A stretch of 64,000 bases of DNA from a virus (lineage: Duplodnaviria > Caudoviricetes): IMG/VR virus record IMGVR_UViG_3300028591_002825, positions 321 to 64,320 of that record. One strand, 5' to 3'. Made by a program: the position numbers and the translations under genes. How positions within the stretch are numbered: the first letter of the stretch is position 1; each line of letters opens with the position of its first letter. A model generated the notes under the pieces. That model was given only the letters and a program-made list of their open reading frames with translations, was not told the DNA's origin and did not search any database. This document shows, in pieces, positions 3,567-60,091 of this stretch.

Positions 3567-6425
3567 TTACATTATTCCGTAGACCTGTTGTACGTAGATA
3601 TTACCTGCAATACTGGCTGTGCCATTTACCCACCGTACACCAATCTGGTTACTGCTCCAGTTCACAAGGTATCCACCTCTTACATACGTGCTCCCGGACA
3701 TGTCTGAGAGATACATAGGATTGTCTCCGAACAGCCTGCAGAACACGAGAAGCTGTCTTGTATTGTGGCACTCGCACCGCATGAGTACTACGTTCCAATC
3801 ATTCAGCGCTACACCTGCATAGGCGTATTCGTTCTGTGTGGATGGTGCTGACAGTTTAGTGTTGTACAATGTATGCGGAACAAGATAAAAAAGAACATGG
3901 GCTATAAGTCGTTTCAAGTCGAGCATCCCGTTTTGGATCATATATGAATCCAGGTCCTGTGCTCTCAACAGAGAGTAAATAGACGCATCGGTTCCACTCG
4001 TAGCATCAGCATCAAACCCAAGTCTCGCACTTCCGTCCCATGTCACGGCGAAAGCGTTGGAGTCTCCATCTTCACTACCGTTGCCGACCATCATGGCATA
4101 ATCACTGTTGTCCTCGTTATATCTCCCGCAAGCAAACTGGTCTCTTGTTTCTGCTGATAGAGATTCTCCGCAAGCTGTGGAAAAAGCACCAGATGTCTCG
4201 TTGTTCCGTGTACCAAACGTATAGGCAGGACCCGGCGTGTATGTTGTTACGAAGGGTTTGGTAATTTCAGCAATATATCGCTCATTATATTCAGCAGTAG
4301 CTGTCCCGAGTGATGAACTAAAAAAGATTTTGCCATCAACATGCTCCAAAGTGTGCTGTGTTCCAACACGACTTGTAATCGTTTGACTGCTGTCAGTTCC
4401 CCATGTTATGGGCTCGAAGATGAGACTTTGTATGCTCAAAAATTTAGTCTCGTCATACGATAGTGCTTGTGAGAGATAGCCGTATGTTCCACCCGAACGG
4501 TCAAATGTTATAACCGTACCCTTGGGGAAAGTTATTGGCTGAAGCGATTCGAACAAATCTTTTCGAACCTCTGACTGCTCATTCCACACTTCCAGTGTTA
4601 TCCGCATATCCATACGGCGAGTGGTGGTTATGATACCACCATCCATATCGACAGAGAAAACATTGACACCTTCTTCGTTGACGCCTTGTATTCCTGTGGT
4701 ATCAATCCCGAGGTGATTGCTCTCATCGGCTCCAATCTGCGAATCCTCCCCGAAGCGTGCAACGGATTTTTCCCCAGTTTCGTCATATACTGTAAGACCA
4801 GATGAAGAAAGAAGTGTCCGTAAAACTCCTGCTACATATAATCTAACATCACTTGCAGTAAAATTTGACAGCAGTGTGTTTGCCGCAGAGTATAGCGATA
4901 TGCCATCTGGGTCAATTAAAATGTGTTTTGCATTGCCCAACCCAAGTCTTATACTATTTGCACTAAAAGTAGCAAGCTCTGTTAAGCCATTTCTTATTGC
5001 AAATCCTATTGACCTGAATAATGCATTATATCCAGCATGATAATTTTCAGAAGTCGGGTCAATAAACTCTTCTTGCGGAACTTCTGTTATATGAGCACCA
5101 GTATCTGTACCCTCTTCTGTAAACCAGAAGTATTGATTAGTATTACCAGCTATTGTCTCTGTCTCTACTAATCTTTCACGTAATGACCGTAAATGTGATT
5201 TTAGCTGTGCAGATGTACGTGTATCAGCATTATATAATGTAGCCGATTTTCTACTCGGTGTGTCAGCGCCGCAAACGATTGTCTGATTTGCAGTAGGAGA
5301 GAATGTAACTCTTGTGAGCAGTATACGATGCTCATTACCTTTTGTATCTATTAGATATGCAGTATCACCTGCTTCTAAGAGCGGGTTACTCACACAAGTA
5401 ATACTACATTTTCTAAATGATAAATCTAATACTTTGTCAGCGATTTGCTCTATGACAGTTTCAATGTTATCTGCTGTTATAAACGGATTATCAGATATAG
5501 TTATTCTGTAATCATCAGTACCTATACTTGATGTTATATCAGCTTCATCTTCTATATTTGCAACTGTTATAGTTATACCAGTTATAGTTATATCTGATAC
5601 AGCTATATCTTGTGAGAATAAAGAGCTGACTTCTGGCAGACTTGTATTTTTACCGGGTATATAAGAAATGGTATCTACAACTGTGCCGTCACTTAAAACA
5701 AGAGAAGCATGTTCATGCTCTACATTATTCTCATCAATGACAGTGATATTATCTGTAGGTATTGGTCTACCAGATAAATCAAACCATTTAAACTCTAATT
5801 GACCAAAAGAGTTGAATCTTGCAAATGTACCATTAATTGTAGCTACCCAACCTATAACATCACGGAATGTACATGAATTACCGTCTGGTTTAGTAGCTAC
5901 TGAGAATGTATCATATACAAAATCAGATTCGGCAAAATTGAATGTTACACCACAAACGGTGCAAGCGTCAGAAACAATTTGGGAAAGTGTAGCAGGATAA
6001 GCAAGTTGACTTTCACTATACGGTCTATCAAATTTACTCATATTATCCAACATAGATAATACAATAGAGTTTGTTGTATAATTAGCTTCTTCAACAGTAT
6101 ATACACCTAATTGAATAGGTTCTGTTGTGCCGTCAATTTCAAGACCAGTAGAAACTACAACATGAGCATCATCAAAATCATATGCTGAATACGACTCATC
6201 ACCATTATATAAAATGATTGTACACTTATTTATAATAGTAGAGCCGAGTGCATCAAATGTATTATCACTGCCGACAGAATCTTCTACTTCAAAGCCATCA
6301 AATAAAATATTTGCGTTAACTATTGTCAGTTCTTCTTGTGAAGCTAATGTGATTACAGCGGTATTTATGAAATTTCTGGAGCTACTTTTAACTTTTTCTT
6401 TAAAAGCAGATGAAGCTGTTCGCAT
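3567..6425 (-). CDS. Large tail protein (baseplate hub / tail spike-like)
   Basis: 952 aa, two genes after tape measure; DNMSKFDRPY..YPATL..C..CGV motifs typical of siphophage tail proteins. Confidence 0.75.
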   Translation of the reverse strand: MRTASSAFKEKVKSSSRNFINTAVITLASQEELTIVNANILFDGFEVEDSVGSDNTFDALGSTIINKCTIILYNGDESYSAYDFDDAHVVVSTGLEIDGTTEPIQLGVYTVEEANYTTNSIVLSMLDNMSKFDRPYSESQLAYPATLSQIVSDACTVCGVTFNFAESDFVYDTFSVATKPDGNSCTFRDVIGWVATINGTFARFNSFGQLEFKWFDLSGRPIPTDNITVIDENNVEHEHASLVLSDGTVVDTISYIPGKNTSLPEVSSLFSQDIAVSDITITGITITVANIEDEADITSSIGTDDYRITISDNPFITADNIETVIEQIADKVLDLSFRKCSITCVSNPLLEAGDTAYLIDTKGNEHRILLTRVTFSPTANQTIVCGADTPSRKSATLYNADTRTSAQLKSHLRSLRERLVETETIAGNTNQYFWFTEEGTDTGAHITEVPQEEFIDPTSENYHAGYNALFRSIGFAIRNGLTELATFSANSIRLGLGNAKHILIDPDGISLYSAANTLLSNFTASDVRLYVAGVLRTLLSSSGLTVYDETGEKSVARFGEDSQIGADESNHLGIDTTGIQGVNEEGVNVFSVDMDGGIITTTRRMDMRITLEVWNEQSEVRKDLFESLQPITFPKGTVITFDRSGGTYGYLSQALSYDETKFLSIQSLIFEPITWGTDSSQTITSRVGTQHTLEHVDGKIFFSSSLGTATAEYNERYIAEITKPFVTTYTPGPAYTFGTRNNETSGAFSTACGESLSAETRDQFACGRYNEDNSDYAMMVGNGSEDGDSNAFAVTWDGSARLGFDADATSGTDASIYSLLRAQDLDSYMIQNGMLDLKRLIAHVLFYLVPHTLYNTKLSAPSTQNEYAYAGVALNDWNVVLMRCECHNTRQLLVFCRLFGDNPMYLSDMSGSTYVRGGYLVNWSSNQIGVRWVNGTASIAGNIYVQQVYGIM

Positions 6426-42237: not shown

Positions 42238-42365
42238 CGCCGGGGGTGGGATTTGAACCCACATGTCTGCGTATACTTGTTCAGATTGGCCATGTTTGAA
42301 CCCCATGGAACAGAACTGACACAGATTACAAAGTCTGCCGCTCTAACCTATTGAGCTACCCCGGC
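42238..42365 (-). tRNA. Atypical tRNA-Thr-like gene (8-nt anticodon loop CUUUGUAA, ~57-nt variable-region insertion)
   Basis: Perfect acceptor GCCGGGG/CCCCGGC, D arm GCTC/GAGC, T arm GTGGG-TTCAAAT-CCCAC. Confidence 0.55.
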
Positions 42366-54809: not shown

Positions 54810-55990
54810 ATTACCCCCAACGGCTCTGTAAATACTTGTGTTATCCTTTCATTAATTGTGCATTGACTATCAACAAATAAATCATGCTGTTTTTGTTGAA
54901 TCATAGAATAATCATCTTTCAACCTATCTAATTTATCTGGTATTTGAGAAAATGAATCATAAATCAACGCATCATCGTGGAAATTAATTATTTCAGAATA
55001 CTTTCGTGAAAATAAAACGGGCAAACCACAATCAATCATTTCTAAATTTGCATACTCAACTGCTGAACCCCAAATTTTAGCTTTTTTTACAAGTAAACTA
55101 TTTTCTCTTGAATCCTCTACAACCCAAGTATCACCAATTAAACTTTTAGTCTTTTTACAACTACTTTTGCTACCGAGTATACAACAAATACCAGCATAAT
55201 AATTTGACCACCTATTTATTGCATCTAAACTATATGATGGGTATATTGTAAGTTTACCACTAACTGGTTCATCATCGTAACATTTAAATGCAAACTCGGG
55301 CTTTAATTGTTTTGGGGATTTTGATATGTCAAATAATGTCAATAATTGAGGCGGTGTGCTTATAGTACCAGATTTATTAAAATTAAATCTTGCACCTTCA
55401 TGGATAAAATAATAATTTGAACCCAAAAACTTTGTATCAATGCTTTTAAAATAAGATAGTGTACCTTTAAACGCTTCAACTCTACCGGCGGTTAATACAA
55501 TTTTACTACGCTTATCTAATGATAAGTGTGGCACTTCTGAAAAAGTGAAAGCATTTACATTTAAATAAATACAATTTTTAACTATATCTAATATATTGGG
55601 GTTTATAGAAAAATAATAATCAAAATCAACAGAATACTTTTTAAGATGTGCAAGTAACCGTAATAATCGTTCTATATTTCTATCACAATATAAATAACAA
55701 AACTCTATATTTGGCAATTCTGTACGCAATTTTGCGATATTGGATACTGCGCTATCTAAATCGTTATCATAAAAAGTTAAAAATATTACTCTGTCATAAA
55801 TAGAAATAATTTCTTTTAACTCAATAATTGTATCATAAAATTTTATATTTGCCAACCCCAAAGGTTTAAATTGTAACGGGTGTACAATATCCTTAAAATA
55901 TACATCGAACCCTAATTTACTATACTCTATGCCCAGTTTAGCTATACCACCACCATCAAATCCAGTAGCATTAATTATAACTGTTTTCAT
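54806..55990 (-). CDS. T4 alpha-glucosyltransferase-like GT-B enzyme
   Basis: Recalled T4 AGT motifs align: ATGFDGGGIAK (ARGLEGCGVTK), GRVEAFKG (GRTTTWKG), AVEYANLEMIDCG (SLEYTHLELGACG). Confidence 0.68.
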   Translation of the reverse strand: MKTVIINATGFDGGGIAKLGIEYSKLGFDVYFKDIVHPLQFKPLGLANIKFYDTIIELKEIISIYDRVIFLTFYDNDLDSAVSNIAKLRTELPNIEFCYLYCDRNIERLLRLLAHLKKYSVDFDYYFSINPNILDIVKNCIYLNVNAFTFSEVPHLSLDKRSKIVLTAGRVEAFKGTLSYFKSIDTKFLGSNYYFIHEGARFNFNKSGTISTPPQLLTLFDISKSPKQLKPEFAFKCYDDEPVSGKLTIYPSYSLDAINRWSNYYAGICCILGSKSSCKKTKSLIGDTWVVEDSRENSLLVKKAKIWGSAVEYANLEMIDCGLPVLFSRKYSEIINFHDDALIYDSFSQIPDKLDRLKDDYSMIQQKQHDLFVDSQCTINERITQVFTEPLGVI

Positions 55991-56963
55991 TTTCTATAGA
56001 TTCCCCATACCACGCTTTAGTTATCTCAACATCACATTTAATCGGAATACTTAAAGCACTCTTAGCGGCTTCTGACATAAGCTGTGCGAATCTTTCAGAA
56101 CATTCTTTTACATTTTCTTCTGGACACTCTGCTATTAATTCATCATGGACAGGTATGAGAAGTCTGAACCCTAATTCTTTTAATCTCTTATCATTGCCAA
56201 CTAAAATCATTGCTAACTTCGACATATCTGCCGCACTTCCTTGGATTCTTGAATTTACGCATTGTCTTTGTGCATCTGCTATTTTAGCTCCATTATCAAC
56301 AATCCATATTCCTTCTCTATTAGCTTCTTCAAATATTTTCCGCTTCTGACTAAAATAACAGTTATTCAGTTTCTTTAAATATTTTCTTTGAAGCTCTTCT
56401 GGAACTTCTGGCTCTGACATTTCTTCTGTTAAATCAAAATCTAACAAATCATCATCAGGCGGCGCTCCATCTTTCCACTTAAACTCATATTCAGGCAGTT
56501 GCAAATCAGGAAGTCTACGTTTTCTACCCCACAACGTAGTAACGTATCCTTTTTCATAAGCCATATCCAATGAATCTTCTTCAAATTGTGGAATTGCCGG
56601 AAAACCCTTAAATACAGAATCTTTTATTGCTTGTGCTTTTTTAATAGTTGTTCCCAACTGTTCAGCAATACTTGGCACTCCTCTGCCATACAACACTCCG
56701 AGCAATATTGACTTTGCCTGTGAGCGTCTATTTTTTCCTTCGGGATTAGTTGTACCGTCTGGACGAAACTCCAAGCAGTTTTCATAAGTCGTGTTAAAGG
56801 ACAAAGCGGCGATTTCTGCATATAAATCTTTCCCTTCTTGATATGCTTTAATCATCTTCGGGTCGCCACACATCTGCGTCATTACTTTTGGTTCCTGCTG
56901 TGACTAAGAATAGTCGCTGGACATAAGTACATAACTTTTTCTTGTCCTAATCGACCGTTTCAT
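55971..56963 (-). CDS. polA: Family A DNA polymerase, C-terminal piece (motifs A, B, C), with in-frame TAG at 56904..56906
   Basis: Own RBS AAGGAGG; MKRSIRTRKSYVLMSSDYS*SQQEPK; RSQAKSILLGVLYG; QGSAAD; PVHDE. Confidence 0.8.
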
Positions 56964-57657
56964 TAGCATCACCCTCCTTTCTAAACCATTTCGGATATTC
57001 ATACTTAGTCTTATTTCTACCATAAGTAAAATATCCGTGTTCAATACTCTGTTTTATTTTTCTCTGATATACACATTCTGCTTTTGTATTAAACGGATTT
57101 TCAACATTTGACCACCATTTCCACGCATCACGATATGAATGAAAATTAAAATGTGTTCCGTTCTCTAAAACACAATAACATCCTATAGAACGTGTATCAC
57201 CTGTGCCAAAGTTATGATTTCCTTTTGCTTTTTCAGATAATTTTCTTTTATGTTCTTCTGTAAATGGATTCTCTTTTCTATACTGCTTCATTGACCGTGA
57301 AATTTTAGAACGTGTTTCCTTACTTCGCATACGTTCTGAATGTTTCCTTTTTACATCGTCAAGAAACATTACATTATTATTTCCACCATCAACCATATTA
57401 TATCCATCTTTAATACAATTATACTTTGCTATATAGTATCTCTCCAGAATATTCAAATCTTCTATATTGTCCACATCACAAATCTTTTCAAATTTGAAAT
57501 TCTCAATACCATACTTTCGCATAGCATTATAAAGATGATTTTTATGACCGTGTTTCGCAGTATTTATATGTTGCCATTTACGTTCTTCTAATGTTCTAAC
57601 AGTTTGACCAACATATATCTTTCCATTTACAATATTCGTTATCTTATAAATTAACAC
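56947..57657 (-). CDS. GIY-YIG homing endonuclease with NUMOD3-like repeats
   Basis: LIYKITN..NGKIYVGQT; LE..YI..YN...GYN; GTG start after AGGAGGTG. Confidence 0.85.
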   Translation of the reverse strand: MLIYKITNIVNGKIYVGQTVRTLEERKWQHINTAKHGHKNHLYNAMRKYGIENFKFEKICDVDNIEDLNILERYYIAKYNCIKDGYNMVDGGNNNVMFLDDVKRKHSERMRSKETRSKISRSMKQYRKENPFTEEHKRKLSEKAKGNHNFGTGDTRSIGCYCVLENGTHFNFHSYRDAWKWWSNVENPFNTKAECVYQRKIKQSIEHGYFTYGRNKTKYEYPKWFRKEGDANETVD

Positions 57658-57676
57658 ATAATCACCTCCTGATATT

Positions 57677-57705
57677 ATTCTATCACGATATATGATTATT
57701 GTCAA
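57677..57705 (-). promoter_or_regulatory. Internal promoter driving the endonuclease and polA C-piece
   Basis: TTGACA-17bp-TAGAAT. Confidence 0.65.
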
Positions 57706-57733: not shown

Positions 57734-58399
57734 TTACAATATATACTCACGAATAAATCTATTTGCGTAATCTGGATGTATCATGCTTCGATTAACAGTT
57801 GTATTATGACTTATATCTTCACGCTTTTTATTCTTATAATTAGGCGCGGAGAAAATAAAATTATGTTTTGGTTCACAATTTATAAACCAATATTGAGTAG
57901 GCTTTTTATAATAATCACCTTTACGACTTCTATCTACATCTATTATTTTTGGTTTCAATGCCCAATAATCTGTTAATATATGTGTAGTGCTTTTTGGATT
58001 TTCAATAATTAACTTTAAACCACGTTTTAAACAAATCAATACCAATTTTGTTACTAAATCATAATACTCTGCCAATTCTGCGAACAATTCTCTATCACGC
58101 TCCAATTTCTTTTCGATTGGCCAATCTTTATAACCAGCATTATTTCCTTGAAAAGCCAATCTTATTTGATGGCAAAATCGAACACATGGGAAAAACGCAA
58201 TTATCAAATCATCACTATTTACACTGTCAAAAATTGACGGTTCATCAACATAACCCGCCCTAATTTCCTTAAATAAATCAATTTGATAATCGGTTTGACC
58301 AAAATCATTTAAAATATCATAATCAAATGCTTCTATGCCAAATTTCTTAAACTCATTCTTAAAAGTCCCACTTTGTTCAAATAAACAATGTACAATCAT
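57734..58399 (-). CDS. Compact DNA cytosine-C5 methyltransferase-like protein
   Basis: CLFEQSG (motif I-like), FFPC (IV), IIENP (VI), KKPTQYW (VIII). Confidence 0.65.
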   Translation of the reverse strand: MIVHCLFEQSGTFKNEFKKFGIEAFDYDILNDFGQTDYQIDLFKEIRAGYVDEPSIFDSVNSDDLIIAFFPCVRFCHQIRLAFQGNNAGYKDWPIEKKLERDRELFAELAEYYDLVTKLVLICLKRGLKLIIENPKSTTHILTDYWALKPKIIDVDRSRKGDYYKKPTQYWFINCEPKHNFIFSAPNYKNKKREDISHNTTVNRSMIHPDYANRFIREYIL

Positions 58400-58406
58400 T
58401 TTTTTT

Positions 58407-59975
58407 TCACCTAAAATCAATAACAACTTCATCCTGTTGAATATCTACTTTTGCGACATTTACACAAGAACCATCATCAAGTAACAACTCATCGCCGGCA
58501 ACGATTTTGTCTGCGTATTTCCATTTATCGGCACACTCTACTTCGCACCACCTGTCTACTACAAATTGTTGTGTATCTGTTGATACCAAATTTTCTTCAT
58601 TTGTAGCGACAAACATTTTTCTAATCTCTTTATTATGACTGGGAATGTTCTGCATATTGGGATTCTCAGAAGAGAATCTTCCTGTTCTCGCACCGTACTG
58701 ATTAAAGCTACAATGAATACGACCGTCTTTGGGGTTCACACAATCAGGCAGTTTATCTATAAAAGTATCCACTATTGTAGAAAACTCTCTATAGTCTAAT
58801 ACTGCTTTTGCGACTGGATTATCCATACTTCTTAATGTCGCTTCATTTGTTGTTCTTACTTCCTTCTTTGTTTTCTTATCTACAGGAACTTCACAACCCA
58901 TAATATCATAAAGAAGAATAGCAAGCTGTGAGGAAGATTTAATATTAATTGGGTCATCTAATTTACAATTAGCTCCCATCTTTCTTCTATATGCTTCTAT
59001 ATCATCTCTATATGTATCACAGATTGCATTAAACTGTTTTATCCTATCATCAAGTAATGCATGATATTTGTCTTTAAGGAATTGATTATATTCAAAATCG
59101 AACTTTATTCCATTATCTTCCATATCACAAACTACTTTGATACAAGGCATTTCAATATTGAAGAATACCCAAGATACGCCGTTCATTCCGTTTCTTGCTT
59201 CTGGCGTACATGTTCTATCGTAGTATACAAACTGCTTTTGATACTGGTATAACTCATAAGTGATAATAGCGTCATGTGCGGCATACAGATAGAATGAATT
59301 GATTGGAATTTTATCTGCTGATACGCCTTTAAATAAAGCATCAAATGAAAACGCATCACCTTGTCCATTAAGTACATACTTCCTATGTAGTGCTTTCAGA
59401 CCATTATGCTCTTCATTTTCATTCATCAATCTCGCCGCAAGATATGCGTCCCATGTACAATAAATATCTTTCACGCCGAGCTGATTTCTTATAACTCGCA
59501 TATCGAACTTGGCGTTGAACATGATAATCTCAATATTAGTATCGTGAATTATCATATCAAATTCTTCTGCCACATCTTGTTCTGTAAGCTGATTATCTAC
59601 TCTTGCACCAGTTACATAAGAAGTATGATTAATTGGAACATATGCAGCTTTTTCATTAGGTGTATACAGACACAGACCTACAATACTATCAAGAATTGGG
59701 TCAAGACCCGTTGTCTCTGTATCTATTGCTACTACACCATTATTTACACACTTTGCAAAATAATCATGCAATTCATCTTGATTTCTAATAATTGCATAAT
59801 CATCCTTAAACTGTCCAAGATTTTTTTCAACCATAGCTTTTATCTGATTGATTTTAGCTAATAGTGAATTTCCACCTCGGACAGTTGTTTGTGCTTTTCT
59901 ACTTGTATTTGATTTTTTAGCAAGTTTATTATCTTGCTCTCTTCCCGCCCGCTTTGGAATACTAAATAAAGGCAT
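58407..59975 (-). CDS. polA: Family A DNA polymerase, N-terminal piece (3'-5' exonuclease + part of polymerase) with a Hint-like tail
   Basis: AIDTETTGL, FNAKFD, YAAHDA, GARTGRFSS..PNMQNIP; ends EIRKMFVAT plus 64 extra residues. Confidence 0.85.
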   Translation of the reverse strand: MPLFSIPKRAGREQDNKLAKKSNTSRKAQTTVRGGNSLLAKINQIKAMVEKNLGQFKDDYAIIRNQDELHDYFAKCVNNGVVAIDTETTGLDPILDSIVGLCLYTPNEKAAYVPINHTSYVTGARVDNQLTEQDVAEEFDMIIHDTNIEIIMFNAKFDMRVIRNQLGVKDIYCTWDAYLAARLMNENEEHNGLKALHRKYVLNGQGDAFSFDALFKGVSADKIPINSFYLYAAHDAIITYELYQYQKQFVYYDRTCTPEARNGMNGVSWVFFNIEMPCIKVVCDMEDNGIKFDFEYNQFLKDKYHALLDDRIKQFNAICDTYRDDIEAYRRKMGANCKLDDPINIKSSSQLAILLYDIMGCEVPVDKKTKKEVRTTNEATLRSMDNPVAKAVLDYREFSTIVDTFIDKLPDCVNPKDGRIHCSFNQYGARTGRFSSENPNMQNIPSHNKEIRKMFVATNEENLVSTDTQQFVVDRWCEVECADKWKYADKIVAGDELLLDDGSCVNVAKVDIQQDEVVIDFR

Positions 59976-60091
59976 GTTATCTTCTCCTATATAATTGCCG
60001 ACTGCATGAAGTAAAAATTTCACGAAAAATCTTCATACAACATTGTGTATTTGTACGGAAAGGAGGGAAAGCGTGCCGACAACTTATTCAA

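Follow-up and report, generated by a model that had tools for sequence, protein, structure and literature searches.

The family A DNA polymerase gene (polA) on the minus strand of the window, i.e. the whole stretch of 64,000 nucleotides analysed here, is interrupted inside motif A by a UAG stop codon that separates two serine codons. We consider it likely that a hop of peptidyl-tRNA-Ser from the first of these codons, UCU, to the next UCN codon carries translation across the junction, which this reading explains best. The break is judged, from comparison with related loci, to belong to a mobile cassette of a GIY-YIG homing endonuclease. The window covers nearly the whole of a 64.3-kb IMG/VR record with a completeness of 95% (CheckV), and the split enzyme is the sole DNA polymerase of this 95%-complete record, in which neither PolB nor DnaE was found.

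Architecture of the split locus

The polymerase is encoded in two pieces, between which the nuclease gene and a cargo ORF are lodged (Table 1). Matches to the Pfam DNA_pol_A family are found on both flanks of the in-frame stop, and the frame that follows QQEPK remains open until position 55971. The preliminary description of this DNA had noted a ribosome-binding site followed by UCU-UAG-UCA in PolA motif A, and this reading is exact on the minus strand. At its 3' end the nuclease gene runs, in a different frame, into the Shine-Dalgarno sequence and the beginning of the leader, and a strong Shine-Dalgarno sequence is present in all cassettes.

Table 1. Components of the split polA locus and their positions in the window
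Feature	Position	Strand	Remarks
polA N piece: 3'-5' exonuclease and first part of the polymerase domain, to ...IRKMFVAT	58407..60023	-	Pfam DNA_pol_A_exo1; DNA_pol_A positions 10-161
C-terminal tail (CTE) of the N piece, ~52 aa, motif ...W.YADKI.VGD.L...	58410..58565	-	in every split locus; missing from intact polA
Cargo ORF, 232 aa, in the variable slot between N piece and nuclease gene	57734..58432	-	without Pfam match
GIY-YIG homing endonuclease gene	56947..57705	-	Pfam GIY-YIG, E = 1.3e-8
Shine-Dalgarno sequence AGGAGG	56973..56978	-	9-nt spacer before leader ATG 56961-56963
19-codon leader MKRSIRTRKSYVLMSSDYS	56907..56963	-	basic N-terminal extension MKRSIRTRK and cassette-borne copy of the motif A strand, SYVLMSSDYS
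Leader helix, 5' arm GGUCG	56952..56956	-	RNAalifold, covariation
Leader helix, 3' arm CGACU	56912..56916	-	stops 2 nt short of the take-off codon
Take-off codon UCU (Ser)	56907..56909	-	GAC TAT TCT invariant in 22/22 split sequences
UAG stop, the entire 3-nt coding gap	56904..56906	-	relatives: TAGG, TAGT, TGAA, TGAATGG or 13-nt gaps
Landing codon UCA (Ser)	56901..56903	-	next codons CAG CAG GAA CCA AAA (QQEPK)
Remainder of the C piece of polA: QQEPKV..., motif B and C regions, stop codon	55971..56900	-	Pfam DNA_pol_A positions 144-381
Small hairpin GACUA-UUCU-UAGUC	56902..56915	-	probably incidental

The N-piece tail and the basic residues with which the C piece begins (56937-56963, minus strand) are conserved in all split genes and are exclusive to them; they probably hold both pieces together. 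The basic extension, of the M-K-K-S-I-R-V-R-K type, is conserved in all cassettes. The tail is loosely Hint-like and lacks splicing residues.

Conservation of the junction and of the flanking sequences

An IMG/VR search with the C piece yielded 79 distinct loci, 11 of them split like that of the window, and a further five IMG/VR contigs and two MAG contigs came from pattern scans. Metagenome contigs scanned with a loose pattern gave chance matches only, among the matches listed. A route independent of the break was offered by the N-piece tail, which was searched alone against 5.8 billion proteins: the 41 protein clusters that carry it (421-532 aa) consist of N pieces throughout, and none of the longer (fused) proteins among the 5.8 billion searched contains it. 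Nine of these clusters led to 13 contigs, 12 of which were checked (L231, a duplicate of L230, was left out), and the same junction is present in 12/12 loci reached through the tail alone. The resulting split set comprises 22 distinct sequences from IMG/VR, ENA, Logan and NCBI MAGs.

The roughly 60 distinct intact polA sequences are uninterrupted, carry no stop and read DYSQQEPK, in the context ...IRKMFVASDGYVLMSSDYSQQEPKV; the motif A context of the intact relatives is ...FVASDGYVLMSSDYSQQEPK, and the closest among them read exactly DYSQQEPK. In all 22 split sequences, GAC TAT TCT is followed by TAG or TGA, within a gap of 3, 4, 7 or 13 nt, and then by TCN CAR CAR GAR CC, a signature found in 0 of the ~60 intact genes. 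Because every split sequence carries this signature and the intact ones do not, the junction cannot be a product of chance. Conservation of the Ser-stop-Ser arrangement in related polA genes, which the preliminary description had named as a check, is thereby borne out in the form Ser-stop-gap-Ser. The form GAC TAT TCT is itself unusual: it occurs in 22/22 split genes versus 3/60 intact ones, where 24 codon combinations are in use. Its invariance in the split genes points to a constraint acting at the nucleotide level.

The gap reads UAG in 4 sequences, UAGG in 6, UAGU in 3, UGAA and UGAAUGG in one each, and takes three 13-nt versions in the other 7; the stop is accordingly UAG in 20/22 cases and UGA in 2/22 (L030 and L086). 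The take-off codon is UCU in 22/22, and the landing codon, always from the same Ser box, is UCA (17 sequences), UCC (3) or UCU (2); the pair of the window, UCU/UCA, is synonymous and not identical. No UCN codon was found inside any of the eight gap types, upstream of the landing codon. The 3-nt gap of the window leaves the C piece in frame, whereas gaps of 4, 7 and 13 nt place it in the +1 frame. The leaders of the window and of L025/L222 are identical over 57 nt and their gaps differ by one base (UAG versus UAGG); a one-base indel is therefore tolerated at the gap and nowhere else in the gene.

TCT-TAG-TCA, together with the same leader, is also present in L219 (an NCBI ruminal MAG contig) and L221 (a Logan assembly), whose C pieces share 80.6% nucleotide identity with that of the window, and the TCT-TAG-TCA junction recurs in L051 and L089, with C pieces 68% and 63% identical to it. 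Since the exact junction is found in contigs with C pieces only 63-80.6% identical, an assembly error at the window junction can, on this comparison, be excluded.

The C pieces evolve with dN/dS values of 0.04-0.2 overall and 0.04-0.13 against intact sisters, and none of the 22 contains a second stop or a frameshift. In the ten codons of the cassette-borne motif A strand (HomR) and the six codons that follow the landing site, variation among the 22 split sequences is almost solely synonymous. These patterns indicate that both flanks of the junction are translated. One may still ask whether the split polA is dead or dying, that is, whether a parasitic cassette arrived recently and replication is carried out by a host or helper polymerase. 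The patchy distribution of the split does suggest many recent invasions, and genes invaded only lately would still look conserved. However, pN is far below pS in comparisons between split genes whose synonymous divergence is saturated (e.g. 0.13 versus 0.82 for L039/L040), the C pieces remain free of further lesions and the junction bases are invariant. The exact junction is kept even by derivatives that have lost the nuclease gene, and the genome offers no other polymerase. We therefore regard a dead or dying gene as quite improbable.

Decoding of the junction

Removal of the gap plus either of the two serine codons restores the exact DYSQQEPK of the nearest intact relatives, and the resulting distance between Asp and Glu is the one kept in every intact sequence. 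A hop of Ser-tRNA is the only single mechanism that would fit all natural gap variants and at the same time deliver the canonical motif. The hop from UCU over UAG to UCA put forward in the preliminary description, restoring DYSQQEPK, is in this respect well supported as a prediction from sequence, since it covers all gap variants and readthrough cannot.

According to the model that we favour, the ribosome would start at the leader ATG and proceed until UCU occupies the P site and the stop codon, which is decoded slowly, the A site. At this point the peptidyl-tRNA-Ser would release UCU, the mRNA would slide by 6 nt (7, 10 or 16 nt in the relatives), and the tRNA would re-pair at the next UCN codon; decoding would restart at CAG and yield a polymerase with canonical DYSQQEPK. 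One and the same isoacceptor would read the take-off and the landing codon of each pair. The co-varying 5' helix, by re-forming behind the ribosome, would help the hop, and the basic nascent leader and the strong Shine-Dalgarno sequence may also assist it.

Hops over a single stop codon have been engineered in E. coli, where they are inefficient (about 1%). UCU-UAG-UCA has the same geometry as these synthetic sites, with a P-site tRNA re-pairing 6 nt downstream across a slowly decoded stop, and in both cases the product is two residues shorter than that of readthrough. The synthetic hops are engineered and of low efficiency, whereas the polA site is natural, conserved and located in the only polymerase of the phage, the hop being predicted here. 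The synthetic cases are a precedent for the proposed hop, as is the gene 60/MobA element discussed below; a 2016 recoding review states that a natural in-frame stop-hop is not known (PMC5009743).

Readthrough of UAG, by a near-cognate or a suppressor tRNA, could apply to the in-frame version of the window only and would produce DYS-X-SQQEPK, with two extra residues in motif A. The window gap is indeed in frame, and TAG is the rarest stop of the window genome, terminating 2/36 ORFs of at least 200 codons (TAA 19, TGA 15). One of these two is, however, the nuclease gene of the cassette itself. The two extra residues would break the spacing between the catalytic Asp and the Glu five positions on, which is constant in the ~60 intact relatives, and the tRNAs encoded in the window are tRNA-Gln, tRNA-Ile and tRNA-Leu only, with no suppressor among them. 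In sister cassettes the identical leader is followed by a 4-nt gap, and the stop of L030 and L086 is UGA instead of UAG. Readthrough and a changed genetic code both fail as a general answer because the 4-, 7- and 13-nt gaps place the C piece in the +1 frame and because UGA can stand in for UAG; even for the window alone, we consider readthrough very improbable. A suppressor tRNA and a reassigned TAG were rejected on the same grounds, namely the UGA and +1-frame variants, the TAG-ended nuclease gene and the three tRNAs encoded. A +1 frameshift at UCU-U was likewise rejected: CUU cannot re-pair with tRNA-Ser, the +1 frame of L032 meets UAA at once, and extra residues would be added.

Termination followed by restart would leave a free 19-residue leader peptide bearing the strand with the catalytic Asp, alongside a separate C piece, the two joining the N piece in a non-covalent three-piece enzyme. 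The polymerase is, after all, already split once and has acquired added tails. The 13-nt gaps (L032, positions 3958-3985; L223, L224, L227, L228, L230 and L232), of the form UAG UU(A/G) AAUG(A/G)(A/G)G, moreover contain a +1-frame stop with an AUG immediately after it. This AUG, two codons ahead of the landing codon, is in frame with the C piece and is used by gene callers, and a purine-rich, SD-like run abuts the landing codon itself. Restart is conceivable in this sub-family, of which the window is not a member. The 3-, 4- and 7-nt gaps, however, offer no in-frame start before or near SQQEPK: the 7-nt gap of L086, UGAAUGG, keeps the GAAUG word out of frame, the shorter gaps contain no start at all, and the C frame of L030, L035 and L083 is closed by a stop a short way upstream, with no start after it. 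Restart would also leave the duplicated serine codon without a role, and SQQEPK is preserved at the protein level in every version. We know of no precedent for a free 19-mer that supplies the central palm strand of a polymerase, and hold this explanation to be unlikely.

The extra bases might also be removed at the RNA or protein level, by a group I intron or an intein, or TAG might be a reassigned codon. Other nuclease-bearing insertions in polA, at motif B and at QGSAAD, do look intron-like, and the N-piece tail bears its vague resemblance to Hint domains. The geometry nevertheless argues against a group I intron, which was rejected for this reason: 3-13 nt are too few, and one intron could not remove the nuclease region and the gap and yet keep the HomR strand. 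Rfam gave no intron match in the window, a weak negative because the probable introns of L223 and L227, used as controls, likewise went without a match. An intein is contradicted by the lack of a Cys/Ser...HN junction, and a reassignment by the existence of UGA variants and frame shifts. Explanations of this group are in our view hardly credible, and the hop of peptidyl-tRNA-Ser remains the reading that we prefer.

A structural feature that may bear on the hop is found in the leader, where codons 3-4 (AGUCN) pair with N'GACU to form a helix that ends 2 nt 5' of the take-off codon. This helix spans 5-9 bp in 14/14 cassettes and was recovered unaided by RNAalifold; 100% of the cells pair, and 0/500 shuffles match. 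Its fifth, variable pair is G-C, A-U, C-G or U-A across cassettes, i.e. all four Watson-Crick types are represented. As an aid to bypassing, this short helix, with few independent compensatory events, is suggestive. The preliminary description had instead drawn attention to the small hairpin GACUA-UUCU-UAGUC around the stop (-5.5 kcal/mol for a 27-nt stretch in the window) as a signal for the hop, a role that is not upheld. The hairpin is strong only in versions with a 3-nt gap (stronger still in L051 and L089), weak or absent in the 4-nt-gap variants (-0.1 to -5.1 kcal/mol) and absent in L030; it is thus not conserved, and both its arms would lie inside the ribosome with UCU in the P site. 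It is probably a by-product of the codons. A take-off stem-loop, which would form in the A site downstream of UCU, was not found: so short a gap leaves no room for one, and the sole local hairpin uses 5' bases.

The window also contains a tRNA-Thr-like gene (42238-42365) with an 8-nt anticodon loop, which is not called by ARAGORN. It has no evident link to the hop, because its anticodon would not read Ser codons.

The homing-endonuclease cassette and its counterparts

The history that we propose begins with an invasion of polA at the β-hairpin just upstream of motif A. Through it the N piece would have acquired its C-terminal tail, and the C piece a ribosome-binding site, a short basic N-terminal extension and a substitute for the motif A strand that is part of the cassette. 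In this arrangement the Ser codon of D-Y-S would be followed at once by a stop codon and 0-10 additional bases, and these by another Ser codon. The architecture is that of a homing-endonuclease split-gene cassette: a nuclease ORF lies between the halves, a CTE, an N-terminal extension (NTE) and a HomR are present, and the distribution is patchy and discordant with the host gene. On the C-piece tree the split trait requires 11 changes, at least 7 of them forced by well-supported branches (shuffled mean 13), and split genes adjoin intact sisters (the window and L002, L051 and L050, L023 and L024). The nuclease regions of the window and L023 are 92.5% identical, versus 76.4% for their C pieces. 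The cassette-borne motif A strand matches the nearest intact gene at 22-23/33 nt, versus 24-30/30 in downstream windows, and L051 and L050 differ for about 90 nt beyond the landing codon and are identical afterwards, which marks a co-conversion tract. The nuclease gene has been lost in L035, L040/41, L226 and L230, with the split, the tails and the gap retained. Phage homing endonucleases are distant relatives of the nuclease, and no close relative of it or of the cassette was found among cultured phages (INPHARED).

By analogy with T4 gene 60, the extra bases would shield the target site within the cassette-bearing allele from the nuclease. The preliminary description had suggested that the stop serves as a control on replicase output. 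This is not supported: the break moves together with a homing-endonuclease cassette, which makes protection of the cassette's own target site, known from T4 gene 60, the likelier reason for it.

The cargo slot differs in content between cassettes (L221, 5570-6580; L223, 5547-6203; L226, 5546-6163; L232, 5563-6279), other cassettes holding an N6_N4 methyltransferase, a PAPS-reductase-like ORF, an unknown 238-aa ORF or nothing. The window and L025 share the 232-aa ORF, which has a PC motif and a blastn match to a 'DNA methyltransferase' of Bacteroides phage B40-8. The cassette seems to pick up DNA-modification genes.

The closest parallel to this organization is the T4 gene 39/mobA/gene 60 element, reportedly described by Bonocora in 2011. 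There, too, a gene essential for replication has been interrupted within a catalytic metal-binding motif by the gene of a homing endonuclease; a CTE has been added to the upstream piece, and a start, an NTE and a HomR to the downstream one. The HomR identities are similar (67-81% in the T4-like phages versus 67-70% in the polA cassettes). In both elements a stop codon opens the gap, which lies close to the 5' end of the downstream gene between codons readable by one tRNA, the nuclease ORF overlaps the NTE out of frame and a helix is located 5' of the take-off site; both are patchily distributed, with signs of repeated invasion and of nuclease loss with the gap kept. For the T4 element, the succession of CTE, nuclease, NTE overlapping the nuclease ORF, HomR and stop-started gap has been laid out, and the gap was shown to protect the element's own target from MobA (bioRxiv 10.1101/2022.08.31.505936). 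The same work reports the MobA/gene 60 element only in topoisomerase genes, calls the bypass cassette unique and mentions no polymerase (bioRxiv 10.1101/2022.08.31.505936). The 5' stem-loop of gene 60 is thought to zip up behind the ribosome (PMC5009743), and the 5' helix of the polA cassettes matches it in position, a comparable role in bypassing being our proposal.

The two elements also differ. The target is motif A of polA and the nuclease of the GIY-YIG type, versus the Toprim motif of a topoisomerase and MobA in T4. The gap measures 3-13 nt, versus 20-50 nt in the gene 60 type (50 nt are bypassed in T4), and has no take-off stem-loop and at most a few SD-like purines. Take-off occurs, by our model, from UCU (Ser) instead of GGA (Gly), after a leader of 18-19 codons instead of 46. 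Between the polA cassette and the MobA element there is no detectable sequence homology; the polA cassette is analogous in architecture and not a member of that family.

Two further systems deserve comparison. The MobE-split nrdA of phage Aeh1 is likewise an essential enzyme split by a nuclease gene, with CTE and NTE tails needed for reassembly (summarised in bioRxiv 10.1101/2022.08.31.505936); it differs in that no coding gap or recoding is involved. The 'byp' elements of Magnusiomyces mitochondria are mentioned in PMC5009743. They are 27-55 nt long and further differ in being mitochondrial, in consisting of GC-rich hairpin elements and in having no known link to homing endonucleases.

Efficient natural bypassing has so far comprised T4 gene 60 with its topoisomerase homologues and the byps of yeast mitochondria. 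Counterparts of gene 60 'perhaps involving shorter distances' have long been expected (2016 review, PMC5009743), and a full-text literature search found no published natural stop-hop and no bypassing in a phage polA. If the hop is real, the present locus and its 21 sequence variants would be the expected short-distance case, a rare and very short relative of gene 60 bypassing. We lean towards the broader view that the polA cassettes are a family of natural programmed bypasses of extremely short range, the first in-frame stop-hop in nature (9 nt read as one Ser) among them, with signals of their own, unlike those of gene 60 (an invariant GAC-UAU-UCU-stop, a helix close against the take-off codon, a nascent leader that is short and basic, and a strong Shine-Dalgarno sequence), and that they exemplify a general way for homing endonucleases to immunise target sites inside catalytic motifs with the protein unharmed. 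The combination of a homing endonuclease and a coding gap suggests a recurrent evolutionary solution and not a T4 oddity. The system is minimal, consisting of a 57-nt leader and a gap of 3-13 nt, and its natural variation in gap length, stop, landing codon and helix renders the requirements of short hops directly testable. Gene finders, as well as predictors of genetic codes based on stop codons, will miscall such genes as broken.

Further GIY-YIG insertions lie within the C piece of L223 (7161-9186) and L227 (6403-8314), at motif B (SILLG|VLYGRG) and at RIQG|SAAD. They look like ORF-bearing group I introns that Rfam does not detect, since the downstream exon has neither a ribosome-binding site nor a start of its own. 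As to the surroundings of the cassette, the contig L219 (JBGUIU010000309.1) was binned in a Paludibacteraceae MAG (75 kb). L220 (CAMOKF010000001.1), from an uncultured Firmicutes MAG, extends over 136 kb, about twice the 64-kb record of the window, and may hold a prophage with host flanks.
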